24,000 nucleotides of DNA from Vibrio aquaticus (GCF_003970385.1 NZ_RXZH01000001.1:849300-873299); one strand, 5' to 3'; numbered from the stretch's first letter, positions 2,385 to 22,345 are shown. Translations and numbers: made by a program. The notes: generated from the letters alone by a model not told the origin.

Positions 2385-3620
2385 GTGAAATCCGGTAGAA
2401 AAAAACAGCTAAAAGAGGATGTTTTCACAGCAGCAAAACGCCGTATTTCTTACATTTTTGACCACTTTGATCATCTCTATATTTCTGTTTCTGGGGGAAA
2501 AGATTCAGCCGTTTTACTCAATTTGGCTATCCGAGAAGCAGAGATACGGGGACGACTTCCCTTAGATATCTTGATTGTTGACTTTGAAGCTCAATTTGAG
2601 CAAACCGCTGCCTTTCTAGAACGTATCGTCTTAACTGGCAAGGTCAACCCTTACTGGATCTGTTTGCCGATCAGCTTAAGAAACTCAGTTTCACAGTTTC
2701 AACCTAAATGGGTGTGTTGGGATCCAAAAGAAAAGCATCGTTGGGTGAGGTCACTGCCTAACGTCAAGGGCGTGATCAGTGACGAACAGACGCTGCCATT
2801 TTTCGAGCCAGGCGTAGAGTTTGAGGATTTTGTTTGTCAATTTGCCCACTGGTATCAGCAGGCAAAAGGTACACAAATCGCCATTTTAATTGGCATTCGA
2901 GCGGATGAGTCACTCAATCGATATAAGACAATAAAAAACATCAAGAAAGCTAAGTTTAACGATCGAGCTTGGACAACCCAGATGCTAGACGATGTCTACA
3001 TGGCCTACCCCATTTATGATTGGAACACCGAGGATATTTGGATCGCAAACGGTAAGTTTAAGTGGGACTACAACCGAGTATACGATCTTATGCACCAAGC
3101 AGGAGTAAAACTCTCCCTCCAAAGGCTCTGTCAGCCGTTTGGAGATGAACAAAGAAAAAGCCTGTGGCTGTACCAGAAATTAGAACCGGATACTTGGCAG
3201 AAATTAGTAGAACGAGTGGAAGGGTGTAACTTTGGGGCCAGATACACTAAAGATCAGGGTCGAATACTCGGCTATTACCGTTTCACATTGCCCGATGGAC
3301 TGACGTATCGTCAGTACAGCAAACTATTACTCAAAACGATGCCCCCAGAGCTTGAGCTGCATTATCGACAACGCATTTTCAAGTTCCTGCAATGGTGGAG
3401 AAAAAATGGCCCACCGAGAGGGGTACATCGCATCCCAGACTTTGCAGACTCCAAGCTAGAAACGAAAAAGAAGGTTCCGAGTTGGCGACGGATATGTAGG
3501 GTATTGATTAAAAATGATTACTGGTGTCGCGGGTTATCTTTTGGTTATAACCAATCTTCCGCCCGAACCCTTCAACACCTCACGAAGCCTTTCAAAGAAG
3601 GAAAAAGTCCTGATGGATAA
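2385..3620 (+). CDS. ibrA: IbrA-like PP-loop ATPase / PAPS-reductase-fold protein with a long C-terminal extension (DUF3440-type architecture)
   Basis: 411-aa ORF with a GTG start preceded by GGAGGGG (2373-2379). The PP-loop motif SGGKDS is at aa 36-41. It is followed by an overlapping ParB-fold gene, which is the IbrA/IbrB architecture. Confidence 0.85.
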   Translation: MKSGRKKQLKEDVFTAAKRRISYIFDHFDHLYISVSGGKDSAVLLNLAIREAEIRGRLPLDILIVDFEAQFEQTAAFLERIVLTGKVNPYWICLPISLRNSVSQFQPKWVCWDPKEKHRWVRSLPNVKGVISDEQTLPFFEPGVEFEDFVCQFAHWYQQAKGTQIAILIGIRADESLNRYKTIKNIKKAKFNDRAWTTQMLDDVYMAYPIYDWNTEDIWIANGKFKWDYNRVYDLMHQAGVKLSLQRLCQPFGDEQRKSLWLYQKLEPDTWQKLVERVEGCNFGARYTKDQGRILGYYRFTLPDGLTYRQYSKLLLKTMPPELELHYRQRIFKFLQWWRKNGPPRGVHRIPDFADSKLETKKKVPSWRRICRVLIKNDYWCRGLSFGYNQSSARTLQHLTKPFKEGKSPDG

Positions 3621-4284
3621 GACCATTGAAAAAACAAAGCAATTATTTCGTGCGCTCTCTCAATCAACTCAAAGGCGGCCTAAGAAAGCCATATTTGATA
3701 ACAATGAGACGACTTCCTCCACCGACACTCTTGGCTGGATATCAACCTACAACCAATTAACTGACCTCGTACTCAAACAGTTTCCTCTTCTCCCTCCTAT
3801 TTGCTCCATCAAGCTACTGCCCCTCAATAAAATCAGCGCCAATGACTACAACCCAAATAAAATGGCAAAGCCAGAAGGTAAGCTACTGTTGCACTCTCTT
3901 GAGCAGGATGGGCTGACGCTGCCCATACTTGTCAATCTACAAAGCCACCATGACCTATACACCATCATTGATGGGTTTCACCGTTATGAACTGATAAAGA
4001 AGCACTCTCACCTACAAACAGTCAAAGGCTATATCCCCGCGATTGTCCTATCCAAATCCAAAGGCGAAGCCATGTCGTCCTCAATAAGGCACAACATCGC
4101 TAGAGGTGTCCACCAAGTCGAATTGACCGCTAATATGGTCATCGCACTCAAGCAAATGAATTGGAGCAATGAAGAAATAGGGAGAGAACTAGGGATGGAT
4201 AAAGATGAAGTTCTAAGAATGCAGCAAATCACAGGATTAGCCGACGCTTTTAAAGATCAGGACTTTTCAACCGCCTGGGAATAA
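3613..4284 (+). CDS. ibrB: IbrB-like ParB/sulfiredoxin-fold protein with an HTH-like C-terminal segment
   Basis: The ATG at 3613 lies inside the last codons of the upstream gene (8-nt overlap). The ParB-fold motif YTIIDGFHRYE is present. The listed ORF start at 3514 would overlap the upstream gene by 107 nt, so I rejected it. Confidence 0.8.
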   Translation: MDKTIEKTKQLFRALSQSTQRRPKKAIFDNNETTSSTDTLGWISTYNQLTDLVLKQFPLLPPICSIKLLPLNKISANDYNPNKMAKPEGKLLLHSLEQDGLTLPILVNLQSHHDLYTIIDGFHRYELIKKHSHLQTVKGYIPAIVLSKSKGEAMSSSIRHNIARGVHQVELTANMVIALKQMNWSNEEIGRELGMDKDEVLRMQQITGLADAFKDQDFSTAWE

Positions 4285-4430
4285 CGCCTCAAATACTGTT
4301 TATTATTTACTCATTAATAACATTACATCTCGTATTTCGAACGACTAAATTCTCTTGGCGTTTAACGCTTACCACGTACTCAAATGTACTTACTTAAAAC
4401 TTGGCGTATTTTATTGCTAGGAGAAATTTC

Positions 4431-5699
4431 ATGAACTTATCCTCTGATACTACTCTAAATCAGACTAAACCTTCATTGTGCAGCGGGGCCAGTATTGTTG
4501 CCTGCGTTTGTATTGGTGCAGGAATGCTTGGCCTTCCTACCGCAGGTGCTGGCTCTTGGACGATATGGTCTTCACTGACATTGATTGTGACCATGCTCAT
4601 TATGACCGCAAGTGGCTGCTTACTGTTAGAAAGCTTTAAGTCTTACCCATTTCGCTCTTCTTTTAGCACCGTGACACGCGATTTGTTGGGCCCGAGAATT
4701 GCCACAGTAAACAACTTAGCTGTCTATTTTGTCGGTGCGATTCTACTTTACGCCTACACCACCTCATCGGGGCTGATTATTGAGCAATACACCTCAGTTA
4801 ATGCCTCGACTGGCTCGATCTTTTTTGTGTTGTTGTTCTCCGCTTTCGTCTGGCACTCAACCCAAGCTGTTAGTAAGATTTCAATCGTGCTGTTACTCTT
4901 TATGTCGTTCAGCTTTATCTTCTCAATTCTAGGGCTGCTGACGTCGCTAGACCCAATCAATCTATTTGGCGACTTTCAGATGTCAAACAGCGTCTATGTA
5001 TTTTCTTTGTTACCCATCGCCCTGACTTCTTTCGGATTTCACCATACTGTTTCTTCTTTAAGGGACTACTATGTGGATGAGTTTCGAGCAGAAAAAGCGA
5101 TGGTGTTAGGTACTGGGTTAGCGCTGTTCGTCTACTTAATCTGGCAAATCAGCGTTTATGGTAATCTCACTCGCAGCAGCTTCATTGAAGTCAGGGAGCT
5201 TGGAGGCAATGTCGATGCATTAATGTCTCTCATGACAAATGGCTTAAAGAAAGAAACCCTGTCGACGATCTTAAATGCATTCTCTTCTGCCGCTATTCTG
5301 TCGAGCTTTATCGGAGTGGGCTTGGGGGTATTTGACTTTCTTACCGATGCTTTTCAATTCGAGAATAACCGTTCAGGGCGATTCAAAGCATGGTTGGTCA
5401 CCTTTCTTCCTCCGTTGCTCTTTTCCTATTTTCTCCCGTTCGGTTTTCTAGCGACAATTGGCTACGCCTCTCTCTTTGCTGCTATTTGGGCGTGTATCAT
5501 TCCAGCTCTATTAGTAAAAAAAGTTCGCGAAGAGGAATCAAATAATACGCTCGAGCCCTGCTCTACCTCTTGGAAACCCAGCAGCTATACCACACCTGGC
5601 GGTGATTTAACGCTCATCGCGGTGTTTTTATTTGGCATCATCATTATAGTAATCAGAATCCTAGAACCTCTGGGTTTCGTTCCCAATTTTGGTCGATAG
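4431..5699 (+). CDS. Aromatic amino acid permease of the Mtr/TnaB/TyrP (HAAAP) family, probably a tryptophan permease
   Basis: Polytopic membrane protein with the N-terminal IGAGMLGLP motif. AGGAG (4419-4423) lies 7 nt before ATG 4431, whereas the listed TTG at 4401 has no ribosome-binding site. It sits immediately upstream of tnaA. Confidence 0.85.
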   Translation: MNLSSDTTLNQTKPSLCSGASIVACVCIGAGMLGLPTAGAGSWTIWSSLTLIVTMLIMTASGCLLLESFKSYPFRSSFSTVTRDLLGPRIATVNNLAVYFVGAILLYAYTTSSGLIIEQYTSVNASTGSIFFVLLFSAFVWHSTQAVSKISIVLLLFMSFSFIFSILGLLTSLDPINLFGDFQMSNSVYVFSLLPIALTSFGFHHTVSSLRDYYVDEFRAEKAMVLGTGLALFVYLIWQISVYGNLTRSSFIEVRELGGNVDALMSLMTNGLKKETLSTILNAFSSAAILSSFIGVGLGVFDFLTDAFQFENNRSGRFKAWLVTFLPPLLFSYFLPFGFLATIGYASLFAAIWACIIPALLVKKVREEESNNTLEPCSTSWKPSSYTTPGGDLTLIAVFLFGIIIIVIRILEPLGFVPNFGR

Positions 5700-5729
5700 T
5701 CCTCACTTACCCCTCAAAAACATTGGCCT

Positions 5730-5766
5730 CTTATTGAATTAATTATACATATATTAATTCAATAAG
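5730..5766. repeat. AT-rich perfect inverted repeat between the permease gene and tnaA
   Basis: CTTATTGAATTAAT (5730-5743) and ATTAATTCAATAAG (5753-5766) are perfect 14-bp arms with a 9-nt spacer. No T-run follows on either strand. Confidence 0.6.
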
Positions 5767-5853
5767 ATCTCCGCCAGTGTTCTCCTAATAAGCCACTGCA
5801 CACATATTGCATTGGGTCTACCTTAAAGAAAACAATTAGAAAAGGAAACGCAA

Positions 5854-7323
5854 ATGGAAAGTTCGAATAATGCTTTTTCGCAGAATAATCAGGCAAAGGA
5901 TTTAAGCTCTGCTATGAGGTATATCGCCGAACCATATAGGATCAGAGTAATCGAACCGATTGGCCAAACGACCCGCTCGCAAAGGGAAGAGGCGCTGGCA
6001 AAGGTGGGATTTAATCCTTTTCTTCTGCACAGCAAAGATGTATTCATTGACTTACTTACGGACAGCGGTACTGGCGCAGTAACGCAATCTATGCAAGCTG
6101 CCATGTTGATGGGAGATGAAGCTTACAGTGGCAGCCGCAGTTACTTTGGTTTGAAAGAGGCGGTGGAAGACATTTTCGGCTATCAAACCACTATTCCAAC
6201 ACACCAAGGAAGAGGAGCGGAACAGCTGTATGTACCAAGTTTGATCAAGAAGCGAGAACGTGAAAAAGGCTTGTCCAGAGACAAAATGACGGTCATATCC
6301 AATTTCTTCTTCGATACAACGCAAGGACACTCGCAATGGCACGGATGCAAAATTGTTAATGTCCCTGTTCCAGCTGCATTTGATACTAAGGTCAAAGCCG
6401 ACTTCAAAGGGAATTTTGACCTCGACTTGCTTGAAAAGACAATTGAAGACATTGGCCCTAAACATATCCCATATATTGTCAGCACCATTACGTGTAACTC
6501 CGCTGGTGGTCAACCGGTCTCTGTGACCAACTTGAAAGAGGTGTATCGAATCGCTAAGCAATACGATATTCCCGTAGTGATGGACTGCGCTCGATTTGCT
6601 GAGAATGCTTACTTTGTTAAACAACGTGAACCTGGATTCAGCCATATGAGCATTGAAGAGATCACTCACCTTTCGTTTCAATATGCCGATGTCTTGGCGA
6701 TGTCTGCGAAAAAAGACGCCATGGTGCCAATCGGTGGACTGCTCGCTTTTAAAGACGACTCCTTAGATGATGTGTACCAAGAATGTCGAACATTGTGTGT
6801 ACTCCTAGAAGGTTTCCCGACCTACGGCGGACTTGAAGGAGGGGCAATGGAACGATTGGCCGTCGGGCTCTATGAAGCGATGAGAGAAGAGTGGCTTGAA
6901 TCTCGTATCGGGCAAATTCAGTATCTCGTCGATGGACTCGAAGCCATTGGGGTGCAATGCCAACAAGCAGGTGGCCACGCGGTCTTTATTGATGCGGGTG
7001 CAATACTGCCTCATATCCCGAAAGATCAATTCCCGGGTCATGTGTTAGCGTGTGAATTGTATCGTGTCGCGGGGATCCGCAGTGCGGAAATCGGTTCACT
7101 TTTGATTGGGCGCGATCCATCGAGTGGTGTCCAGCTACCCGCTCCTGCAGAGCTGTTGCGTTTAGCGATACCTAGAGCAACTTATACTCAAGCCCATCTT
7201 GACTACGTCATTGCAGCCTTTCAGCTAGTAATGAATGGGTGTCAAAACCTCAAAGGTTTGACGTTCACCTACGAACCACCGGTGTTAAGACACTTCAATG
7301 CACAATTTGTCGAAGTGGCTTGA
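5854..7323 (+). CDS. tnaA: Tryptophanase (tryptophan indole-lyase, PLP-dependent beta-eliminating lyase)
   Basis: Long blocks are collinear with my recollection of E. coli TnaA: [97 protein letters not shown] and KGLTFTYEP. Confidence 0.95.
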
Positions 7324-7324
7324 T

Positions 7325-7355
7325 AAAAGAGAGCCAGCAATAAATGCTGGCTCTC
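7325..7355. terminator. Hairpin between convergent genes, probably a bidirectional terminator
   Basis: GAGAGCCAGCA (7329-7339) pairs with TGCTGGCTCTC (7345-7355): an 11-bp perfect stem with a 5-nt loop. An A-run upstream gives a T-run on the minus strand, directly after the stop of the minus-strand gene at 7358. Confidence 0.65.
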
Positions 7356-7357
7356 AA

Positions 7358-7852
7358 TTAGTTGCCCACTATAATTTCTGGTCTAGACGTCATACCCCAG
7401 AAATCCATAAAGCCTTCAATTTTTCCTTTGTGGATGTAATTGTGAGGGAACGTCTGAAGCAAGTATATGCCGTCATTCTCACGAACTATGTGGTAGAATA
7501 AAAATGTATAACCTGAAGAAATTTGGTTAAACCTATCATTGCTGTCTTCTTTTGTATTCGTGATCAAAGGCACTCGAGAATAAACAAAATAGACCGCTTG
7601 ATTACCGAAACGAAACTGACGAGCTTCCACTTTCCACTTAGAAATAATTCTACCATCCGATGCAGTTTTAGTCTGTAAGGCAACAACCTTTCCACGATAG
7701 CAAGTGAGCGAGACGTCTCGTTTATCCTCAGGCACATGAAGTGATATGGAATATTGGCATGTAGCCCCCACTAAAAAGCCATACATGACAACACTGCTCA
7801 AGATCCCTGTGACAATGAGAGATAAAACAATCAGCTTACGACCTAGAGCCAT
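7358..7852 (-). CDS. ToxS/VtrC-like single-pass periplasmic partner protein (function inferred from context)
   Basis: 164-aa ORF with one N-terminal hydrophobic helix (LIVLSLIVTGILSSVVMYGFLVGA), then a soluble domain. Its start overlaps the stop of the upstream ToxR-like gene by 17 nt. Confidence 0.6.
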   Translation of the reverse strand: MALGRKLIVLSLIVTGILSSVVMYGFLVGATCQYSISLHVPEDKRDVSLTCYRGKVVALQTKTASDGRIISKWKVEARQFRFGNQAVYFVYSRVPLITNTKEDSNDRFNQISSGYTFLFYHIVRENDGIYLLQTFPHNYIHKGKIEGFMDFWGMTSRPEIIVGN

Positions 7853-8471
7853 GACTCACCTCCATCAGACCACTTTGGTCGGAATAATAAAAACGCCCCG
7901 CCTTTCCCACAACTTGCTCTCGACTCGGTTGTTCCCCTTGAATACTGCAGATCGTAGCCTCTCCATATTGTTGGCATTCGACTTTCACCCATGAAAATGT
8001 CGTGTAAATGGCAGCATAGGCGGAGAATAACAGGGTAAGCAGGGCCCCGTATACTTTCACTTGTTCTAAGCCATGATTTCGTTGCTCTAGGGGGGCGAGC
8101 GCCACATGTTCTCTCGTAGGCTCCACATCAGCGACCTCTTCAGCCTCCGGAATGTCTATCTTGTATCCCCTACGAGGCACATTAGTAATCTTAATATTCG
8201 AAATCTCTAGGACCTTACGTAAATTCGTGATGGCCACGGGCAAAGAGTTCGAACCTATAATTTCAGGTCTTCCCCAAGCCGCAACAATCAGATCATGCTT
8301 AGTGATGACCTCTCCTTTATTTTCAGAAAGCTTTTGCAAAATACAACTTTCCGGCAATGTAATTGAAAATGCTTTCTCGTTTTCAAGTATCACTTGAGCC
8401 CCACTCTCACTCCGCTCTAATCTGCAACTTCCTATTGGCAAACTTAACTCATCTATCATTTTCTTCATCAC
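7836..8471 (-). CDS. ToxR/CadC-like membrane-bound transcriptional activator (N-terminal OmpR-type winged helix, one TM segment, short periplasmic tail)
   Basis: 211-aa ORF. The winged-helix segment is LPVAITNLRKVL...VPRRGYKI. The TM segment is VYGALLTLLFSAYAAIYTTFSWV. The ~50-aa C-terminal tail has two Cys. There is no receiver domain. Confidence 0.8.
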   Translation of the reverse strand: MMKKMIDELSLPIGSCRLERSESGAQVILENEKAFSITLPESCILQKLSENKGEVITKHDLIVAAWGRPEIIGSNSLPVAITNLRKVLEISNIKITNVPRRGYKIDIPEAEEVADVEPTREHVALAPLEQRNHGLEQVKVYGALLTLLFSAYAAIYTTFSWVKVECQQYGEATICSIQGEQPSREQVVGKAGRFYYSDQSGLMEVSHGSRS

Positions 8472-9973: not shown

Positions 9974-10037
9974 TTTCGATAAGTTTTATATTAATCACAA
10001 CAAAACACAACAAAACACAACAACTAGGAGAAGAATT

Positions 10038-10376
10038 ATGACAAGAACACAGTTTTGGATTACATCCGTACTTTCTTCGTTTTCTATGGCAGTGCTGATG
10101 TCTGGCATCATCACTGCTTCTAAAGTTGGCTTTAATGATTTGTGGCCAGCGGCTTGGTTGAGCAGCCTGATTATTGCGTGGCCTTGTGCATTACTGCTAA
10201 ACTTCACCATTCTGCCGAAAATCAAAATGTTTTCGGAATGGCTAGCGACAAAGGTCAGCGCAACAAAATCAACAAACAGCGAGATAAAAACAATGAAAGT
10301 CGGCTTTAGGGGTTTCTCAAGCGCCAAGGTCAGCGCCTACCCTCCACGCGTTGTTTACAATCGCCATCTGCACTAA
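10038..10376 (+). CDS. DUF2798-like small membrane protein
   Basis: AGGAG (10026-10030) lies 7 nt before ATG 10038. The TM-rich sequence carries an AWP motif (LIIAWPCALLL) typical of DUF2798 as I recall it. The listed start at 9783 would run through the divergent LysR gene, so I rejected it. Confidence 0.7.
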   Translation: MTRTQFWITSVLSSFSMAVLMSGIITASKVGFNDLWPAAWLSSLIIAWPCALLLNFTILPKIKMFSEWLATKVSATKSTNSEIKTMKVGFRGFSSAKVSAYPPRVVYNRHLH

Positions 10377-10384
10377 TAACAGAC

Positions 10385-10418
10385 ATAAAAAAACCGAGCA
10401 CTCAGGCTCGGTTTTCTA
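10385..10418. terminator. Bidirectional intrinsic terminator between convergent genes
   Basis: AAACCGAGC (10391-10399) pairs with GCTCGGTTT (10406-10414), with loop ACTCAG. It is flanked by an A-run upstream and a T-run downstream. Confidence 0.8.
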
Positions 10419-10433
10419 ATTTTCGGCTATGAA

Positions 10434-11150
10434 TTATAGCTCAGCGTTGTGGTAAACCTGCTGAACATCATCACAATCATCCAGCATGTCTAGGAACTTC
10501 TGGAATTTTTCTGCATCTTCGCCAGCCACTGGAGTGTGAGTTTGAGGTACGAACGTAATCTCTTCCACATCCATTGTTAGGTCAGGATAAGCGGTGTTCA
10601 ACGCAGTCTTCGTTTTGAAGAATTCAGTGTGCGGAGCGAATACAGTGATAACACCATCTTCAAGCTCAACGTCAGTCACATCAACGTCTTCCATCATTAG
10701 CGTTTCAAGAATCACTTCGTCATCTTCGCCTTTGAACTGGAATACCGCCTGGTGATCGAACATGTGAGATACAGCACCTTCAACACCAATCTTCGCGCCA
10801 CATTTAACAAAACATTGGCGAACATCTTGGAAAGTACGGTTGCCATTGTCAGTTAGACAGTCAACAATCACGCTCGTGCCACCTGGGCCAAAACCTTCGT
10901 AACGTGCTGGTGCATAATCTTCACCACCGCCGCCGTTAGCTTTATCGAGCGCTTTGTCGATAACGTGTGCTGGAACTTGGTCTTTTTTCGCTTTAGTGAT
11001 CAGGTGCTTTAGCGACAAGTTCATGTCTGGATCACCGCCACCGTTTTTCGCACACATGTAAATTTCTTTACCGTATTTGGAATAAACTTTAATTTTTGCG
11101 CCTGCAGTTTTTGCCATTGAGGCTTTGCGCACTTCAAAACTTCTTCCCAT
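10434..11150 (-). CDS. YebC/PmpR-family DNA-binding regulatory protein
   Basis: 238-aa ORF with family-typical blocks [43 protein letters not shown] and [19 protein letters not shown]. Confidence 0.92.
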
Positions 11151-14847: not shown

Positions 14848-16818
14848 TTAAACGGCCACTTCATCCAAAGCGCGGAACACACTTTCATCGAGGTGCCCTT
14901 CTAACACCTGTTTACACACTTTTCTTCTGACTGCGAGTCCTGCGATAAGACGCTCGATTGATAAGTGTTTGTTTTCACTTTGTGCGTTGTACAGCTCGAT
15001 CATCTTGCTTAATGTCTCATAAGGCACCACCTGTTCGCCAACTCTGAGAAAGTCGAGCTTGTCTATGAGCTCCAGACACTCTTCTTGGATTGAGGCATGG
15101 GAATGCCCTGTCATAGCCGCTAAAGCCGTTATAGAGCGTTCTAGAGCCTCTGTAGAGGTGTATTTGGACAAGGTTATGGTAATTTCATCCGCATTGATCT
15201 CTACCAAGTGTTTACGCTGCTTCACTCGACGGCCCAAATTGCCTTTTGGTGAGCGTTCTTTGCGTTGAATAGGCTCAAACTCACCATCGATGATTTGTGA
15301 CATCTCCTCAAGCTGCTTTTTCGACACCATTTCGTTACGCAGTGGGTTTGGTAACGTCGGCGCCATGTTGCGCTTGCCAGCGTTGGTCGTACGAGCACGA
15401 GAGTAGCGTAGAACCTCTTCCGCATCACACTTAATATCAAACTGGTAATCTTTGATCTTTCCATTTTCAGACTGTGTTGAGATCGTTAAGTGATAACCCC
15501 AAAGATTCACCACAAACAGATCTTCCGTCCCTTTCTCGTCTGACAGTTTCTTCAACTCGCGGATCAAATCCATTGAGAACCGGCGCCATTCGATATTTCG
15601 AGCTAATTTTTGGTTCAGTTCACTCAACAACATCACATCACTGTGTCTGCGCGACATGCGGCTACGGAAGTAACTGTACAGCTGGAAAACCAACGTGTGC
15701 TGCTTCAGGATTTCTGGCGGGAACAAGAAGAAATAATCGCGGGTAAGAAGCTCTTCGTAGAAAGATGGCTCCCAGACAAGGATATACAGGTTCGGTTTTA
15801 TGCGTATTTCGCCGTCAGCGCCCTCTGTAGGCGCTTCTTCCGATGCAGTGATGGTACGGGCCAAAAATCTGAAACGGTCGCTCTTGAAGCCTTCTGGCAT
15901 GTTTTCGCTTAACCAACGACCGGTGAGTTCGTGAAGTTGGAAATCGGTAAACTCAATGCGGTCGATACTGTCACGGATTGAGTCACGCGCAGGGCCGCTG
16001 TCTTTCTTGCCTCGAAGCGACAAAATATCCGTTATGTACAACGGTGTCTTGTTTGGAACGTGCGTACCATCCAGCTGATATTGGTGCTGGTGGTGCTCGT
16101 GGTATTGAACGGTCAATGTGAACAACGCAAATAGCGTCATCAAATCATCGACTGTCATGATGTTTTTTGATGATCGTGTCTCGATCACTGCACGAGTTCC
16201 AGAGATTGAAACCATGCTTTTTTGATAATTTTTACGCGTACGTGGTGGGGCAAGAGCCTGATCGATGATCCCAGCCCAGTTTGTTGGTGAAACCACAAAC
16301 TGCTCCGCTTCGTCTTTCATCGCAGGAGGCGTATTGAGGCCATATTCGTTCAATAAGCGTTTGTTGACTTGTGTCTGAGCTAGGGCTTTTGATCGTTTCT
16401 GCTTGGCGTTTTGTTTTACAGTTTCAGTCACTAGGCTGGTGGCACCAAGTACAGAGATCAACTGATTCGGGTTAACGAAACGGTGCAACATCGTTTTGCC
16501 TGCCAGGCCCTCTTCAAAACGAACTGGGACTTGTTGGAACAATCCAATATTTACCGCAGCACGCAAACGTTGCTGAATCGCTGCACGAGTAACTTGGCCA
16601 TCAGTCGCATCAATCAGTTCAGTGGTAGAGACTAATCCATCCCGACTGCTAAAGCCTCTAAGAGAGATTAGGTTTAACAGCTCTACGATGCTTTTCGTAA
16701 CGCCTTTGAAGTGTTGGTATTGTTCAATCCAGTTGACTGCCATTTCAGACACTTCAAACAGGTGTCCATCTTTGTGGCTTCTGGGCGCTTTGATCAGCAG
16801 TTTATCTTCTGAGCTCAT
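14848..16818 (-). CDS. rctB: Chromosome 2 replication initiator RctB
   Basis: 656-aa ORF, with an N-terminus (MSSEDKLLIKAPRSHKDGHLFEVSE...VELLNLISLRG) that matches my recollection of V. cholerae RctB. It is adjacent to the iteron-rich origin and divergent from parA2-parB2, which is the diagnostic synteny. Confidence 0.93.
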   Translation of the reverse strand: MSSEDKLLIKAPRSHKDGHLFEVSEMAVNWIEQYQHFKGVTKSIVELLNLISLRGFSSRDGLVSTTELIDATDGQVTRAAIQQRLRAAVNIGLFQQVPVRFEEGLAGKTMLHRFVNPNQLISVLGATSLVTETVKQNAKQKRSKALAQTQVNKRLLNEYGLNTPPAMKDEAEQFVVSPTNWAGIIDQALAPPRTRKNYQKSMVSISGTRAVIETRSSKNIMTVDDLMTLFALFTLTVQYHEHHQHQYQLDGTHVPNKTPLYITDILSLRGKKDSGPARDSIRDSIDRIEFTDFQLHELTGRWLSENMPEGFKSDRFRFLARTITASEEAPTEGADGEIRIKPNLYILVWEPSFYEELLTRDYFFLFPPEILKQHTLVFQLYSYFRSRMSRRHSDVMLLSELNQKLARNIEWRRFSMDLIRELKKLSDEKGTEDLFVVNLWGYHLTISTQSENGKIKDYQFDIKCDAEEVLRYSRARTTNAGKRNMAPTLPNPLRNEMVSKKQLEEMSQIIDGEFEPIQRKERSPKGNLGRRVKQRKHLVEINADEITITLSKYTSTEALERSITALAAMTGHSHASIQEECLELIDKLDFLRVGEQVVPYETLSKMIELYNAQSENKHLSIERLIAGLAVRRKVCKQVLEGHLDESVFRALDEVAV

Positions 16819-17024
16819 TATTAGATCCGTGTCACACTAGCCGTAACATTGCTATAGTTCCGAGAGAATAAAGAAAAAAAGATCATAAATAAAGAAAAAA
16901 TTATGGCTTTTAAATAACTGATCTTTCTGATTAATATGATCTTAAATGATTATATGATCTATTGATCAGGCAAGGAAAAGGCTTGTAACGTTTTGTTTTT
17001 AATAAGTAAAAAAAATAACGCTTC

Positions 17025-17151
17025 GAAAGCATGATCATAGAAACGCTGAAAGCATGATCATTAACTTATTGAAAGCATGATCAAAAATCCTAAGAACGAT
17101 GATCATCGCTTGGCCGAAACAATGATCAATGTAACCCTGAAAACATGATCA
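17025..17151 (+). repeat. Array of six direct RctB-type iterons
   Basis: 13-mers start at 17025, 17048, 17071, 17093, 17116 and 17139: GAAAGCATGATCA x3, AGAACGATGATCA, GAAACAATGATCA and GAAAACATGATCA. Spacing is 22-23 bp and each contains GATC. Confidence 0.9.
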
Positions 17152-17166
17152 TCACTCCTACACACT

Positions 17167-17175
17167 TTATCCACA
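17167..17175 (+). promoter_or_regulatory. DnaA box (perfect TTATCCACA)
   Basis: Exact 9-mer consensus, 16 bp after the last iteron of the array. Confidence 0.85.
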
Positions 17176-17237
17176 AGCAGAATTGGCATAATCACCATTG
17201 TAACGTCTATTGACCTTGTGGCTGAGCCCTTTTTCAC

Positions 17238-17656
17238 GAAACGATGATCAAGGAGACGATTTGTTTTTTCTATTGTTGTTTAATTATTAAACGAACTTGA
17301 AATTCAAATGACAGTTTGCAGATATTATCCACAACGGGTTTAATAGGAGTATCGGTCCGAAAGCATGATCATGAAAAGTGGCGTTTGATGTCTGTTCTTT
17401 GTATTGGCGTCTCGATGCACATACAACCCCCCTTATTGCCCGGTATTTCCCACTGCATCTACATTCCTCCGTAATTTGGACTCATTTTTTCATGCTTCCG
17501 AAGCATACATGCACTTGATCATTGTTCCGATCTTGGATCTTCTGTTTTTCGCTGGTTTTACATCAAGCTTCTGATCGAAATTACCTTGATCATCGTTCCT
17601 GTATTCATGATTAAGGTCGGAAGCATGATCACCATGCTTATCTTGATCATGTTTCC
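17238..17656. repeat. Six dispersed iterons in both orientations (incII-like region)
   Basis: Forward copies are at 17238-17250 (GAAACGATGATCA), 17359-17371 (GAAAGCATGATCA) and 17619-17631 (GGAAGCATGATCA). Reverse copies are at 17516-17528 (TGATCATTGTTCC), 17587-17599 (TGATCATCGTTCC) and 17644-17656 (TGATCATGTTTCC). Confidence 0.85.
17325..17333 (+). promoter_or_regulatory. Second DnaA box (perfect TTATCCACA)
   Basis: Exact 9-mer consensus at the end of the AT-rich tract 17255-17320, in the same orientation as the first box. Confidence 0.8.
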
Positions 17657-17835: not shown

Positions 17836-18055
17836 TAAGTGACACTGTAATTCTTTTAAAGTTTTGGCTTTTATCGGTTACATTCCATGTCTAATCTAGG
17901 CCAAATATGCGTATTTTCTACGCGAAACATTCAATTTCTTGTAAAATCTCTATTTAATGTGATTAGCATCTATAATTGAATGTTCAGCTTTTTATTGTTT
18001 GATATCGTAAATGCTGTACAATTGGTTTCAGGTCATTAATAACGGAATTTGGCAA

Positions 18056-19273
18056 ATGAAACGAGAACACACCATTGAGAGTCTCATTCAACTGGCAGAA
18101 AAGACGGCTCAGGTACAAGCTGATCGTATTGAAATTGTATTAGAAGAACGCAGCGATGAGCACTTTCCTCCAATGTCGAAAGCATTGATGGAAACACGCT
18201 CAGGTTTAACTCGCCGTAAATTAGACGATGCGATTACTAAGCTTGAAGCAACGGGCCATCAGTTTACAAAAAACAATGCAAATCATTACTCTATTTCGTT
18301 AGAAGAAGCGCATATGCTGATGGATGCCGCTGGCATCCCTAAGTTCCATGAACGCAAGAAACATGGTGACAACAAACCATGGATTGTGAATGTTCAGAAC
18401 CAAAAAGGCGGCACGGGTAAATCAATGACCGCTGTGCATCTAGCGGCTTGTTTAGCACTTAACCTAGATAAGCGTTACCGTATTTGTCTTATCGATTTGG
18501 ATCCACAAGGTTCACTTCGTCTTTTTCTAAACCCACAAATCAGTATTACTGATCACGACAACATCTACTCAGCTGTTGATGTGATGCTTGATAACGTTCC
18601 TGATGGGGTAGAGGTTGATAATGAATTCCTGCACAAAAATGTGCTATTACCAACTCAATACCCGAATTTGAAGACGGTATCGGCATTCCCTGAAGATGCA
18701 ATGTTTAACGCTGAAGCATGGCAGCATCTCTCTCAGAACCAGTCTCTTGATATCGTAAAATTGCTGAAAGAGAAGCTGATCGACAAGATTGCTGATGACT
18801 TCGACATTGTGATGATCGATACCGGTCCACACGTTGACCCATTGGTTTGGAATGCAATGTATGCGTCAAACGCTTTGCTGATTCCTTGTGCGGCGAAGCG
18901 TTTAGATTGGGCTTCTACGGTTAACTTCTTCCAGCACCTTCCAACAGTTTACGAGATGTTCCCAGAAGACTGGCAAGGGCTTGAGTTTGTACGTTTGATG
19001 CCAACCATGTTTGAAGACGACAATAAGAAGCAAGTGGCCGTGCTGACTGAAATGAACTACTTGTTGGGTGATCAAGTCATGATGGCAACGATTCCACGTA
19101 GTCGTGCATTTGAAACCTGTGCCGATACCTACAGCACCGTATTTGACTTAACGACCGGTGATTTTGAAGGCGGTAAGAAAACGCTCGCAACAGCTCAAGA
19201 TGCTGTACAAAAGAGTTCACTAGAATTAGAACGTGTCCTGCATAGTCACTGGACATCATTAAATCAGGGGTAA
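18056..19273 (+). CDS. parA2: Chromosome 2 partitioning ATPase ParA2
   Basis: Deviant Walker A is NQKGGTGKSMT, with blocks LIDLDPQGS and MIDTGPH. Starting at MKREHTIE gives 405 aa, which is the length I recall for V. cholerae ParA2. The listed start at 18011 adds 15 unsupported residues. Confidence 0.9.
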   Translation: MKREHTIESLIQLAEKTAQVQADRIEIVLEERSDEHFPPMSKALMETRSGLTRRKLDDAITKLEATGHQFTKNNANHYSISLEEAHMLMDAAGIPKFHERKKHGDNKPWIVNVQNQKGGTGKSMTAVHLAACLALNLDKRYRICLIDLDPQGSLRLFLNPQISITDHDNIYSAVDVMLDNVPDGVEVDNEFLHKNVLLPTQYPNLKTVSAFPEDAMFNAEAWQHLSQNQSLDIVKLLKEKLIDKIADDFDIVMIDTGPHVDPLVWNAMYASNALLIPCAAKRLDWASTVNFFQHLPTVYEMFPEDWQGLEFVRLMPTMFEDDNKKQVAVLTEMNYLLGDQVMMATIPRSRAFETCADTYSTVFDLTTGDFEGGKKTLATAQDAVQKSSLELERVLHSHWTSLNQG

Positions 19274-19281
19274 TATAGAAG

Positions 19282-20253
19282 ATGGCAATTAAAACTTCAG
19301 ATTTAAACGCTCGACTATTTGGTAAGGCAAATAAACGCCATGTAACGACACCGCAAGAAGCGCAGCAGGCAGCAAAAGAACAGGCTCAAGTCATCGAGCT
19401 ATCTGTTGCCGGTGAAGAGAAGGTTCAGTTTGAGCTGATACGTATTCCTGCGGATAAAGTCAGCGAGCAAACGGTCGTTTTTGCAGAGAACGCTCGTGAG
19501 CAATCGTTTCTAAATGAGCATGCGCTTTCTGATGTCCTAGTGACATTAAAAGAGCGTGGTCAGCAATACCCAGCCGTTGGCCGCAAGCGTGAAGATGGCA
19601 AGATCGAGGTTCTTGATGGTAGCCGCCGTCGTATGTCGTGTATTCTGGCTGACAAAGAGTTTCTAATCTATGTGGGTGAGAACATTAGCACTGAACATGC
19701 TAAGTTCCTATCTGACGTAGCAAACGCTCATAAGCCTTTATCGCTATACGAAAAAGGCAAAGAGATGCTGGCGAAGCTAGAAAGCGGTGAAGCAGAAGAC
19801 CAAAAAGCGTTAGCGAAAATGTTCCAGTGCAGCGAAGCGCTAGTGAGTGGTGCGTTGAAAGCGGCGGATTTACCACTGCAACTTCTGCAAGCGTACCCGA
19901 ATGTGGCTGAGCTTGGCCGACCAACCATCGTTAAGCTACATAAGCAATACAATGCGCTAGACCAACAAAAGCGTTCTGAATTACTGGATAAATGTCGCTC
20001 AGATGAAGGGTTTGTTTGGCAACGTAGCCAGTCTCAAGGTGTGGCTCGCATCACTAAAGAAGTCACTGAAACGATTGAAGCTTGGGTGGAAGAACTCGCA
20101 CCAACCAAGACATCGACGCCAGCGAAAAAAGACCTAGTGAAAGGCCGCGCAAACTATACTCGTAAGGGAACAAACTTAACGTTAAACCTTAAGAAAGTAG
20201 ATGATGCGTTGATGCAAGAGATCTTGGATTTAGTCGCAAGCAAGTTAAACTAA
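19282..20253 (+). CDS. parB2: Chromosome 2 partitioning protein ParB2
   Basis: 323-aa ORF 8 nt after parA2. The ParB-box-like segment VLDGSRRR is present. Cognate TTTACAnTGTAAA sites lie nearby. Confidence 0.9.
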   Translation: MAIKTSDLNARLFGKANKRHVTTPQEAQQAAKEQAQVIELSVAGEEKVQFELIRIPADKVSEQTVVFAENAREQSFLNEHALSDVLVTLKERGQQYPAVGRKREDGKIEVLDGSRRRMSCILADKEFLIYVGENISTEHAKFLSDVANAHKPLSLYEKGKEMLAKLESGEAEDQKALAKMFQCSEALVSGALKAADLPLQLLQAYPNVAELGRPTIVKLHKQYNALDQQKRSELLDKCRSDEGFVWQRSQSQGVARITKEVTETIEAWVEELAPTKTSTPAKKDLVKGRANYTRKGTNLTLNLKKVDDALMQEILDLVASKLN

Positions 20254-20341: not shown

Positions 20342-22345
20342 ATGGCTGTCATCTCTCAATACTTTACTCAACTCCTACAAGCTGCTCAGCAAGCGAATCA
20401 TCGTTTTGGCGTGGTATTGGCAGGGGAGGGGGATTGGCAACTTCATACCGTTCAACAAATCTGTCAGCTCGTAGATGAAAACCGTATCTACCTTTTGGGT
20501 GATGAGCTAACGCTACCAGCTTCAAAGCAAGTTAAATTCAATAAAGGTCAGCAGCTTCTCGGGCAGGAGTGCAAACTGCTTGTTTGTGATTTCCGCTCTG
20601 GTTTTGACATCAACAGTTTCAGTGCCGCTTTGGGCTGCGTAAAAGGCGGTGGCCTAGTGGTCGTTTTGGCTGCCGCTCAATGCGCGTCAGATACGCTTGA
20701 CAAGCAATGGTTGGATAATTGTTTGGCTCAGTTATTGGTAGTCAAACAAGGACAAGCTCTTCCGGCACTACCCTTGTCAGAGTATCAAACCGAAGAAGGG
20801 TATATTCAGCAACAAGCTGCGATTGAGAAAATCGTAAAGGTTGTAGAAGGACATCGAAAGCGTCCTCTTGTTATGACCGCAGACAGAGGCCGAGGAAAGA
20901 GTAGTGCACTTGGCATGGCAGCCGCTCACTTAATGCAGCAACGCTCGATGAAAATTTTGCTCACAGCACCAACTTTGGCAACGGTTCAACCTGTGTTTGA
21001 ACACGCATCCCGATTGCTGCCAGGTGCCACTCAGACGAAAAACACAGTTGAGTGGCGGGGAAGTACCTTAGAGTTTATTGCCCCAGATGAGTTACTAAGA
21101 AGTGATAGTAGCAGTGACCTATTGTTGGTTGATGAAGCCTCTGCGATTCCGATTCCTTTGCTTAAGCGAATGGTTGAACGCCATCATCGAGCTGTCTTCT
21201 CAACCACGATTCATGGTTATGAAGGCTGTGGCCGTGGCTTTACTCTTAAATTCCAAACGTGGTTAAAACAGCAAAGACCAGGTTCTGTTTTCTATCATCT
21301 TGACCAACCTATTCGCTGGGCTAAAAGCGATCCGCTAGAACGCTGGCTGTTTGATAGCTTTCTTCTCAATGCTGAATTGTCGCCGCTAAGTGACAAACCA
21401 AGGTCATGTCGATTGGAGAGTATCGACAAAGCAATGTTGCTGGCGAATTCCAACTTGCTGCGTGAGTGTTTCGCTTTGTTGGTCAACGCGCATTATCAGA
21501 CGTCACCGAATGATTTGATGTTACTGCTTAATGACCCTCAGATTCGTCTCTTTGCTTGGTTTGAAGATGAAGTTTGTTTAGGTTGTATTTTGACAGTTGA
21601 TGAAGGACATCTGTCAGCCGAGCTCATTGAAGATATTCAGTTAGGCAAGCGTCGACCGCGTGGGCATTTGGTTCCGGTTATGTTAGCGAATCAATTGGGC
21701 ATTCACGCTGCTGCCGAGCAATCGAGTTTACGTATCATGCGTATTGCCGTTCATCCACATTTGCAAGGTCAGGGAGTTGGTCAGAACATGCTGGCACAGT
21801 TGCAGCAGCAAACAGACCATGACTTTTACTCCACCAGCTTTGGGGCTACATCAGAGTTGTTGGCATTTTGGCGTTACTGTGGATTTGTTCCGGTTAAGCT
21901 CGGTAGCCAACGTGACCAAGCGAGTGGAACTCATTCGTTGGTAATGGTAAAAACGGAACAAGATTGGTTAGCGCAAGCTCATGTGTGTTACCAACTTTCA
22001 TTGCACTACAGCGTGGCTCAATCGTTCTCGCAACTTGAGATTGAGCTTGTCCGTAGTTTGTTTGAAGAAAATGATGCTTCCGTTGATAAACCTAGCTTCA
22101 TCGAACTTATTCAGGCTTATGCAAAGGGTGGGGCGAGCTACGATAGTGTCGCTCCCTTCCTCGACCTGTGGTGGAAACGCTCTCCGAAACTATTGGCGCT
22201 GGCGAGTGATCTTTTTGTTCGCAAAGTCGTACAAAGGAGGTCTTGGAGTGAGTGTGCCGAGATACTCGATTATCCTGGTCGTAAACAAGTTGAGCATGCG
22301 TTTAGAGGTCAGCTTGACTTGTTACTGTCACAACTGGATAGCTGA
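20342..22345 (+). CDS. tmcA: tRNA(Met) cytidine acetyltransferase TmcA (helicase-like ATPase plus GNAT domains)
   Basis: 667 aa. Blocks collinear with my recollection of E. coli TmcA: ADRGRGKSSALG, VDEASAIPIPLL, IHGYEGCGRGFTLKF, QPIRWAKSDPLE, AHYQTSPNDL, RRPRGHLV, RIAVHP and FWRYCGFVPVKLG. Confidence 0.93.
   Translation: MAVISQYFTQLLQAAQQANHRFGVVLAGEGDWQLHTVQQICQLVDENRIYLLGDELTLPASKQVKFNKGQQLLGQECKLLVCDFRSGFDINSFSAALGCVKGGGLVVVLAAAQCASDTLDKQWLDNCLAQLLVVKQGQALPALPLSEYQTEEGYIQQQAAIEKIVKVVEGHRKRPLVMTADRGRGKSSALGMAAAHLMQQRSMKILLTAPTLATVQPVFEHASRLLPGATQTKNTVEWRGSTLEFIAPDELLRSDSSSDLLLVDEASAIPIPLLKRMVERHHRAVFSTTIHGYEGCGRGFTLKFQTWLKQQRPGSVFYHLDQPIRWAKSDPLERWLFDSFLLNAELSPLSDKPRSCRLESIDKAMLLANSNLLRECFALLVNAHYQTSPNDLMLLLNDPQIRLFAWFEDEVCLGCILTVDEGHLSAELIEDIQLGKRRPRGHLVPVMLANQLGIHAAAEQSSLRIMRIAVHPHLQGQGVGQNMLAQLQQQTDHDFYSTSFGATSELLAFWRYCGFVPVKLGSQRDQASGTHSLVMVKTEQDWLAQAHVCYQLSLHYSVAQSFSQLEIELVRSLFEENDASVDKPSFIELIQAYAKGGASYDSVAPFLDLWWKRSPKLLALASDLFVRKVVQRRSWSECAEILDYPGRKQVEHAFRGQLDLLLSQLDS

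Follow-up and report, generated by a model that had tools for sequence, protein, structure and literature searches.

A PP-loop and ParB-fold gene pair of the IbrA/IbrB family and its linkage to a mobile tryptophanase block in Vibrio aquaticus

A coupled gene pair of the IbrA/IbrB family

In a stretch of 24,000 nt from the genome of Vibrio aquaticus (NZ_RXZH01000001.1:849300-873299, hereafter the window, with coordinates counted from its first letter), two overlapping genes encode a PP-loop protein and a ParB-fold protein. Judged by full-length homology, the pair is a member of the widespread, named IbrA/IbrB (YbdN/YbdM) family, and the V. aquaticus copy is an ordinary one that represents no new kind of system. 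Here it heads a six-gene block that includes a tryptophan permease and a tryptophanase. We put forward, tentatively, the possibility that the pair would act as a DNA-tethered, ATP-dependent co-activator of adjacent genes, in this case tnaB and tnaA.

The sequence features from which the original prediction started are all present. The first open reading frame (ORF) has 411 codons, starts at GTG 2385 behind a GGAGGGG, and carries SGGKDS at residues 36–41. The second has 223 codons, starts at ATG 3613, overlaps its predecessor by 8 nt, and contains both IIDGFHRYE (residues 118–126) and a tail resembling a helix-turn-helix (HTH), NEEIGRELGMDKDEVLRMQ (residues 186–204). The features of the pair are as follows.

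2385–3620, + strand: ibrA/ybdN-like gene, 411 residues, GTG start (Pfam match, YbdN homology, AlphaFold2 (AF2) model)
2373–2379, + strand: GGAGGGG, the Shine-Dalgarno sequence of ibrA, 5 nt upstream of its GTG (direct sequence reading)
2490–2507, + strand: PP-loop SGGKDS, IbrA residues 36–41, invariant in 57 close and 13 distant homologs
3613–3620, + strand: 8-nt overlap of the ibrA stop and ibrB start, ATGGATAA, with the ibrA TAA at 3618–3620; similar overlaps in relatives
3613–4284, + strand: ibrB/ybdM-like gene, 223 residues, ATG start (Pfam match, YbdM homology, Foldseek on the AF2 model)
3970–3984, + strand: DGFHR motif, IbrB residues 120–124, aligned to the GERR arginine patch of ParB/Noc
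4168–4230, + strand: HTH region, IbrB residues 186–206, with model helices 186–193 and 197–206; aligns to the Noc HTH

The start of ibrB is best placed at ATG 3613, as the public annotation of the identical V. aquaticus protein (P0121) also has 223 residues; a mechanical ORF list stretches the gene upstream to ATG 3514. A public record lists the identical IbrA protein under the name 'DUF3440 domain-containing protein [Vibrio aquaticus]'. Translational coupling, which had been read from the 8-nt overlap, gains weight from comparison: overlapping or abutting gene ends recur in Escherichia coli K-12, where ybdN and ybdM stand in the same order with a 28-nt overlap, on plasmids of Klebsiella and Vibrio, and among phages. 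This recurrence supports the view of ibrA and ibrB as a translationally coupled operon.

Assignment to the IbrA/IbrB family, also part of the original prediction, holds on two grounds, namely homology to YbdN and YbdM over the full length of both proteins and the public labels of relatives, which include IbrA, 'IbrB-like' and 'immunoglobulin-binding regulator'; relatives of the second protein are named 'IbrB-like domain-containing protein'. The profile searches that the prediction had proposed returned PAPS_reduct and DUF3440 in the first ORF and ParB_N in the second, all above the Pfam cut-offs.

Domains and conserved residues of IbrA

IbrA, a PP-loop ATP pyrophosphatase with the PAPS-reductase fold, matches PAPS_reduct (PF01507) with an E-value of 1.4e-11 (45.2 bits; cut-off 22.5) and DUF3440 (PF11922) with 1.4e-33 (116.6 bits; cut-off 25), and this order of domains, PAPS_reduct followed by DUF3440, places it with COG3969. 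Its homology to YbdN of E. coli K-12 is full-length (39% identity over residues 6–391, E = 1e-96). In the AF2 model, with a mean predicted local distance difference test (pLDDT) score of about 80, the first ~230 residues match the folds of CysH, APS reductase, FMN adenylyltransferase and CysD at 12–19% identity in Foldseek. The C-terminal DUF3440 part is helical and family-specific, and no structural match to it was found. A sequence search returned no solved structure close to either IbrA or IbrB.

We examined conservation in a broad alignment of 13 IbrA sequences, which includes the Vibrio protein, YbdN, homologs from a Klebsiella plasmid, Neisseria, Lelliottia and Clostridioides, and five phage copies. 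Invariant throughout are the PP-loop, D66/E68, R172-x-x-E175-S176-x-x-R179, D212-W213, D217, R247 and P251; the PP-loop and the R-x-x-E-S-x-x-R motif are thus kept even in phage and Gram-positive homologs. No cysteine is invariant among the 13 sequences: C249 is replaced by Ala or Ser, and C111 is variable. The lack of a family-wide cysteine argues against CysH-type thiol chemistry or DndC-type Fe-S or persulfide chemistry as the core reaction. Going by the chemistry of its fold, IbrA should bind ATP, cleave it to AMP and pyrophosphate, and adenylylate a substrate. Given its canonical PP-loop and the reactions that CysD and FMN adenylyltransferase catalyze, we infer that the conserved activity of IbrA would be plain ATP-dependent adenylyl transfer.

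Two long IbrA homologs, P0357 (631 residues) and P0361 (611 residues), have about 380 residues between the PP-loop segment and DUF3440. No Pfam family was matched in this insert, perhaps an intein or an additional domain.

Fold and nucleotide pocket of IbrB

The match of IbrB to ParB_N lies narrowly above the Pfam threshold (E = 3.8e-6, 27.3 bits; cut-off 26.3), and its homology to YbdM of K-12 is again full-length (43% identity, E = 1e-48). The protein consists of a variable helical N-terminus, an N-terminal nucleotide-binding domain of the ParB/Noc/KorB type, and an HTH, directly after which the chain ends in the AF2 model (mean pLDDT ~80), so that there is no C-terminal dimerization domain. 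The N-terminal helical extension of the Vibrio protein is longer than that of its E. coli counterpart. In Foldseek searches of the PDB the best matches are ParB, Noc and KorB, with E-values of 4e-8 to 1e-6, and these cover the HTH as well as the N-terminal domain; only a core of ~85 residues superposes on sulfiredoxin, free serine kinase and SbnI.

In profile alignments to Noc and ParB, DGFHR maps onto GERR, and R-H-N-x-A-R-G onto (I)-E-N-L-Q-R-E. Residues D120, G121, H123 and R124 of the motif are invariant, as are G194, M195, E199, L201, R202 and Q205 of the HTH. Two catalytic or contact residues of ParB are replaced by histidine: the Glu and Arg positions of GERR are F122 and H123 in IbrB, and the Glu of ENLQR is H160. 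The ParB-pocket glycine, second arginine, asparagine and arginine are retained (G121, R124, N161 and R164), which makes nucleotide binding by IbrB plausible.

Comparison with known systems

The closest known systems are the YbdN/YbdM and IbrA/IbrB pairs of E. coli (the latter in the IbrAB island of ECOR-9 and O157:H7), which share architecture, gene order and overlapping ends with the Vibrio pair; the identities of 39% and 43% were measured against the K-12 proteins. The surroundings differ, as the E. coli pair stands beside citR or in the IbrAB island, whereas the Vibrio pair heads a tnaB-tnaA block.

DNA phosphorothioation likewise combines a ParB/sulfiredoxin (Srx)-fold protein, DndB, with a PP-loop ATPase of the PAPS-reductase fold, DndC. 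DndB carries a motif of the D-G-x-H-R type. The original prediction had offered DpdB as the ParB-fold parallel; DndB, which stands beside DndC, is the closer one, though it was not a significant match here. The Dnd system differs from the pair in that DndA, DndD and DndE partners are missing from the V. aquaticus locus, where the neighbors are a two-component system, tnaB and tnaA, and in that DUF3440 is absent from DndC; DndC-type conserved cysteines are also missing from IbrA. Against the DndC model TIGR03183, IbrA scores 28.7 bits (cut-off 290.4) over residues 158–220 only, and the PADLOC DndC model gives an E-value of 9e-8 over 76 residues. The PADLOC matches to BrxP (E = 7e-4 over 25 residues) and SspD (E = 3.6e-4) are weaker still, there are no BREX or Ssp genes in the window, and PADLOC returned nothing for IbrB.

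For an assimilatory CysH/CysD enzyme accompanied by a partition-type ParB, one can cite the PAPS_reduct match, weak matches to CysD and CysH, and the name 'phosphoadenosine phosphosulfate reductase' in some records. The NCBIfam scores of IbrA, however, fall about ten-fold below the respective cut-offs (CysD, 26.6 bits against 195; cysH, 16.4 against 165.1; PAPS_reductase, 17.1 against 254.2), the C-terminal cysteine on which catalysis by CysH depends is not conserved family-wide, and no cys genes lie nearby. IbrB in turn reaches 20.5 bits against a cut-off of 58.45 for parB_part (TIGR00180), lacks the C-terminal dimerization domain, and has no ParA adjoining it; the real ParA2/ParB2 pair lies at 18011–20253. 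This alternative is effectively refuted, in agreement with the original prediction, which had set the pair apart from sulfate assimilation. On these scores and residues, the pair is not CysH, CysD, DndC, SspD or BrxP, and IbrB is not a partition ParB.

Among the CTP-switched DNA clamps of the ParB family that serve in transcriptional control, namely KorB (of plasmid RK2), Noc and VirB of Shigella, KorB and Noc share with the predicted fold of IbrB the N-terminal domain followed by an HTH. VirB activates silent, horizontally acquired genes, and a gene-activating IbrB would parallel it in this respect. IbrB differs from ParB-type clamps in lacking the C-terminal dimerization domain, in the substitutions of GERR by DGFHR and of the ENLQR Glu by His, and in being always accompanied by an enzyme partner.

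Distribution and obligate pairing

Homologs of IbrA number more than 6392 at E ≤ 1e-5 among 8000 candidates scored. In a search of protein representatives, they form 363 clusters at 50% identity with E ≤ 1e-30 and 1063 with E ≤ 1e-10. Of 5426 complete E. coli genomes, 5379 carry ybdNM, and in Listeria sensu stricto the pair belongs to the core genome. Homologs also occur on 729 plasmid records, among them Klebsiella IncFIB/FII, E. coli, Ralstonia and Vibrio plasmids, many of them conjugative, and on 224 phage records, including phages of Flavobacterium, Mycobacterium, Streptococcus and Lactobacillus.

A gene for a ParB-fold partner adjoins ibrA in each of the 30 complete loci that we inspected, whether chromosomal, plasmid-borne or in a phage. 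The partner is mostly downstream of ibrA; it is upstream in two Shewanella loci and in a Microcystis phage.

A compact, overlapping two-gene unit carried on plasmids could suggest a toxin-antitoxin or addiction module in which IbrB would be the antitoxin and IbrA the toxin, and TASmania indeed holds a guilt-by-association entry for the Listeria genes lmo1309/lmo1310. That assignment was made by adjacency only, however; the proteins are large and enzyme-like with no known toxin fold, and the pair is core in both E. coli and Listeria sensu stricto. We consider an addiction module very improbable.

A search of the literature on IbrA/IbrB, YbdN/YbdM, DUF3440 and COG3969 found no biochemical characterization. 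In E. coli, ybdNM is tightly repressed by the adjacent LysR regulator CitR (PMC9068703). A search of E. coli DNA with the Vibrio pair gave no match, and a 2.3-kb 'phage' fragment from an O157 host, considered as a candidate for ibrAB, was rejected as the orthologous ybdNM-ybdL region. As for phenotype, Sandt et al. are said to have reported in 2002 that ibrAB activate the eib genes, reportedly the family's only known genetic phenotype. Eib proteins belong to the YadA family of autotransporters.

Surface-protein and defense genes around the pair

Outside the Vibrio loci that carry tna genes, the pair recurs beside genes for surface proteins. In V. mimicus and Aliivibrio loci, YadA_anchor genes lie immediately downstream of the pair and in the same orientation (positions 10034–10792 in locus L004, 1953–2828 in L021, 9832–10251 in L022 and 9832–11295 in L023), and in L023 the YadA_anchor gene starts before ibrB ends. 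A plasmid of V. maritimus carries a giant adhesin with immunoglobulin (Ig)-like domains and an OmpA-family gene, divergent from the pair. In two Shewanella species, ibrB precedes ibrA by 4 nt beside a chaperone-usher fimbrial cluster (L019, 7350–9200; L020, 102–1952); a TcfC-like gene is upstream of the pair on plasmid pVDT1; and in other Vibrio an OprB-family porin or a small outer-membrane barrel protein flanks it. The adjacency echoes the E. coli Eib genetics and is suggestive, because the sole known phenotype of the family is activation of eib genes.

Defense genes stand near the pair in only some of the loci examined. The Aliivibrio copies lie between genes for LeoABC-like dynamin GTPases and McrBC or type I restriction-modification genes (L022, 3313–7196 and 10623–13679; L023, 2401–5643 and 11358–14368), and by this gene content the Aliivibrio loci are variable islands with defense-system genes. 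In Streptococcus thermophilus phage D4276 the pair is two genes away from AcrIIA5, it borders the large terminase gene of mycobacteriophage Athena, and in Listeria its neighbor is an SNF2 gene.

These surroundings bear on the main alternative to the co-activator, close to what the original prediction had preferred over sulfate assimilation, in which the pair would be a nucleic-acid modification module for conflict between genomes (defense, anti-defense or self-protection), with IbrB targeting DNA and IbrA adenylylating and then modifying a base or the backbone. The invariant catalytic loop, the fold relationship of IbrA to DndC, SspD and BrxP (weak matches), the ParB-fold partners of the Dnd and Dpd systems, the many phage and plasmid records, and the AcrIIA5, McrBC, type I restriction-modification, LeoABC-like and SNF2 neighbors are all consistent with such a role. 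Yet restriction or effector genes show no consistent linkage to the pair among the loci examined, the PADLOC and NCBIfam scores lie about ten-fold under the family cut-offs, and the lack of a family-wide cysteine makes sulfur insertion of the Dnd/Ssp type unlikely. The near-universal presence of ybdNM in E. coli is also unlike that of a typical defense-island gene, and the V. aquaticus copy is part of a metabolic and regulatory block whose GC content resembles that of its flanks. On balance, a modification module seems somewhat unlikely.

The tna block and its mobility

Downstream of the pair, the block continues with the following genes.

4431–5699, + strand: tnaB-like Trp/Tyr permease (Pfam Trp_Tyr_perm, 6e-108); likely start ATG 4431 after AGGAG, TTG 4401 in the ORF list
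5854–7323, + strand: tnaA tryptophanase (Pfam Beta_elim_lyase, 6e-74); a separate lineage by its identity pattern
7358–8471, − strand: 164-residue ORF and 211-residue ToxR-like winged-helix regulator at the far end of the block (synteny)

The six genes, ibrA, ibrB, tnaB, tnaA, the 164-residue ORF and the ToxR-like gene, occupy positions 2385–8471. They recur as a block in no fewer than eight further Vibrio lineages, where plasmids or either of the two chromosomes carry it. Its order is shared by the closest relative (locus L002, with an IbrA 83% identical), by V. brasiliensis, V. vulnificus and V. thalassae, and by the 46-kb plasmid pVDT1 of Vibrio sp. 16 (L039, 5974–12006; also loci L001, L002, L003 and L012). 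In these relatives the penultimate ORF has 157–166 residues and is, together with the ToxR-like gene, on the strand opposite to the rest, while the flank upstream of the block differs from species to species.

The link between the pair and tnaB extends beyond complete blocks. tnaB directly follows the pair in every relative that carries the block and, plasmids included, in at least 12 loci. An inserted two-component system separates tnaB from tnaA in V. europaeus, V. ostreicida and Vibrio sp. RE88, plasmids of the Splendidus clade carry porin-ibrA-ibrB-tnaB beside the plasmid parAB, and in a metagenome-assembled genome of Pseudomonadales, tnaA and a permease gene precede the pair instead. The interval from ibrB to tnaB (4285–4430) contains no predicted terminator. 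A TnaC-like leader peptide candidate in this region, MYLLKTWRILLLGEIS (16 residues including Trp, 4384–4434, with its stop overlapping the tnaB ATG), is absent from 15 relatives and was rejected as due to chance.

The canonical tna loci are arranged otherwise. V. cholerae and V. parahaemolyticus have tnaA followed by tnaB, V. crassostreae has tnaA alone, and ibrAB is in none of them; the order of the block, tnaB before tnaA, is the reverse of that in canonical Vibrio and E. coli loci. Among named species, TnaA proteins at least 73% identical to that of the block come only from those that also carry the block, and the block TnaA is about equally distant, at ~70–71% identity, from the TnaA of V. 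cholerae (70%), V. parahaemolyticus and E. coli (71%). It thus looks like a separate, horizontally moving tryptophanase lineage. Because the same gene order recurs across Vibrio and plasmids and the canonical tna loci are without ibrAB, the mobile unit is the whole six-gene block rather than the pair alone. The original prediction of an accessory insertion between a two-component system and the tna genes therefore chose the wrong unit: the pair travels with the block. There is also no compositional signature of insertion, with a GC content of 0.41–0.45 across the pair and its flanks alike.

At the far end of the block, the 164-residue ORF has no Pfam match and overlaps the ToxR-like gene; both are kept with tnaA in all block carriers. 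The arrangement is reminiscent of ToxR/ToxS, and the two genes may be the real tna regulator.

The linkage to a tryptophan permease and tryptophanase raises a further alternative, in which the two proteins would be enzymes that produce or activate a small molecule, IbrB as a ParB/Srx-fold kinase of the SerK/SbnI type and IbrA as an adenylyltransferase, linked in Vibrio to tryptophan or indole and with feedback through the HTH as in SbnI. SbnI offers a precedent, from its NCBIfam name, for one protein being both an enzyme and a DNA-binding regulator. Homologs of IbrB match SerK in 35 and SbnI in 23 of 53 members, recurrently but below threshold (16 bits against 350). Structural matches include free serine kinase, SbnI and sulfiredoxin, which share the ParB/Srx fold, and IbrA resembles FMN adenylyltransferase and CysD, both adenylylators of small molecules. 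The best structural matches of IbrB, however, are the DNA-binding proteins ParB, Noc and KorB, HTH included; many contexts, phages among them, are without metabolic neighbors, and no other biosynthetic genes are conserved alongside the pair. A small-molecule role is in our judgment decidedly unlikely.

Upstream spacer and chromosome 2 origin

The region upstream of ibrA contains two further features.

1708–2384, + strand: ORF-free region (no ORF of 50 residues or more), a deletion scar and probable promoter region
1850–1887, + strand: single-copy hairpin (perfect stem of 11 bp, loop of 16 nt; −21.3 kcal/mol, z = −3.0)

An ORF-free spacer of ~0.68 kb was part of the original prediction, and at 677 nt the region agrees with it. 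Its origin can be read from L002, where mipA and a gene of 352 codons (without a match in Pfam) still separate the histidine kinase gene from ibrA (5294–7391 in L002). The V. aquaticus spacer matches this locus at 1843–1891 and 2229–2290 only. The hairpin aligns to L002 7391–7438, right after the stop of the 352-codon gene; it occurs once in the window, and the other loci lack it. Since V. aquaticus has lost mipA and the 352-codon gene, the spacer is, by this comparison, a deletion scar, and the hairpin a relic of the 3' flank of the lost gene. A candidate non-coding RNA, which had been proposed for the spacer, found no backing: a gathering-level Rfam scan of the whole window gave 0 matches, and the one notable hairpin is this relic.

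The proximity of the chromosome 2 origin, by contrast, was borne out by RctB, ParA2 and iterons, at ~12.7 kb from the pair (predicted, ~12.5 kb).

14848–16818: RctB
17023–17631: eight GAAAGCATGATCA iterons between rctB and parA2, each with GATC, several spaced 23 nt apart
from 18011: ParA2 (ParA2/ParB2 pair, 18011–20253)
19282–20253: presumed ParB2, 323 residues, downstream of ParA2

The presumed ParB2 matched no Pfam family at E ≤ 1e-3 and has weak PDB sequence matches to Spo0J (1e-3) and SopB (5e-3). Directly after parAB2, at 20342–22345, is a gene for a 667-residue homolog of TmcA/NAT10-type tRNA cytidine acetyltransferases.

A possible role as a recruited co-activator

Returning to the DNA-tethered co-activator, we envisage the following mechanism. 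IbrA and IbrB would form a complex and act as one DNA-bound unit. IbrB would supply site recognition or nucleotide-switched DNA clamping, as in ParB, KorB and VirB, and would localize IbrA, which would supply an ATP-dependent adenylylation step. Regulation would be positive, with an output of activation, or of relieved silencing, of neighboring horizontally acquired genes. In V. aquaticus, with tnaB and tnaA as the neighbors, uptake of tryptophan and production of indole would be under the control of the pair; the corresponding targets in relatives would be YadA-type or Ig-like adhesins, fimbriae and porins.

Several observations weigh against this co-activator role. Adhesin and outer-membrane genes are common in variable islands, which lessens the force of an adjacency observed without a null model, and the ToxR-like regulator of the block could control tna alone. 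In an alignment of seven relatives, the region upstream of ibrA shows no conserved operator or promoter motif, only a short patch in common with the closest of them. Natural IbrA-IbrB fusions are also missing among seven unusually long IbrA homologs (493–631 residues), which contain PAPS_reduct and DUF3440 only. A strictly conserved catalytic PP-loop is hard to reconcile with a mere transcription factor and suggests covalent modification as the real activity. Finally, the abundance of the pair in phages and plasmids, with AcrIIA5 as a neighbor in D4276 and the terminase in mycobacteriophages, fits conflict between genomes equally well or better.

A more specific form of the co-activator would make IbrA/IbrB a novel type of machinery for gene activation, although we regard it as unlikely when taken as a whole. 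In it, a ParB-fold, nucleotide-switched DNA binder would recruit a dedicated PP-loop adenylyltransferase, and the covalent product, on DNA, a nucleoid protein or RNA polymerase, would switch on adjacent silent genes. The mechanism would be wired to a mobile second tryptophanase, and hence indole, in one Vibrio lineage, and to YadA-type or Ig-like adhesins in others.

The family is among the more widespread bacterial two-gene units for which no biochemical function was found in the literature, and the present analysis offers three leads to it. The lack of a family-wide cysteine steers the chemistry away from sulfur insertion of the Dnd/Ssp type and PAPS reduction, towards adenylyl transfer. Recurrence beside surface-adhesin and outer-membrane genes agrees with Eib activation. 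Finally, the fixed linkage of the pair to a mobile variant tnaB-tnaA locus in one Vibrio clade offers indole production as a cheap readout. If true, gene activation by a recruited adenylyltransferase would explain the old Eib observation in E. coli.

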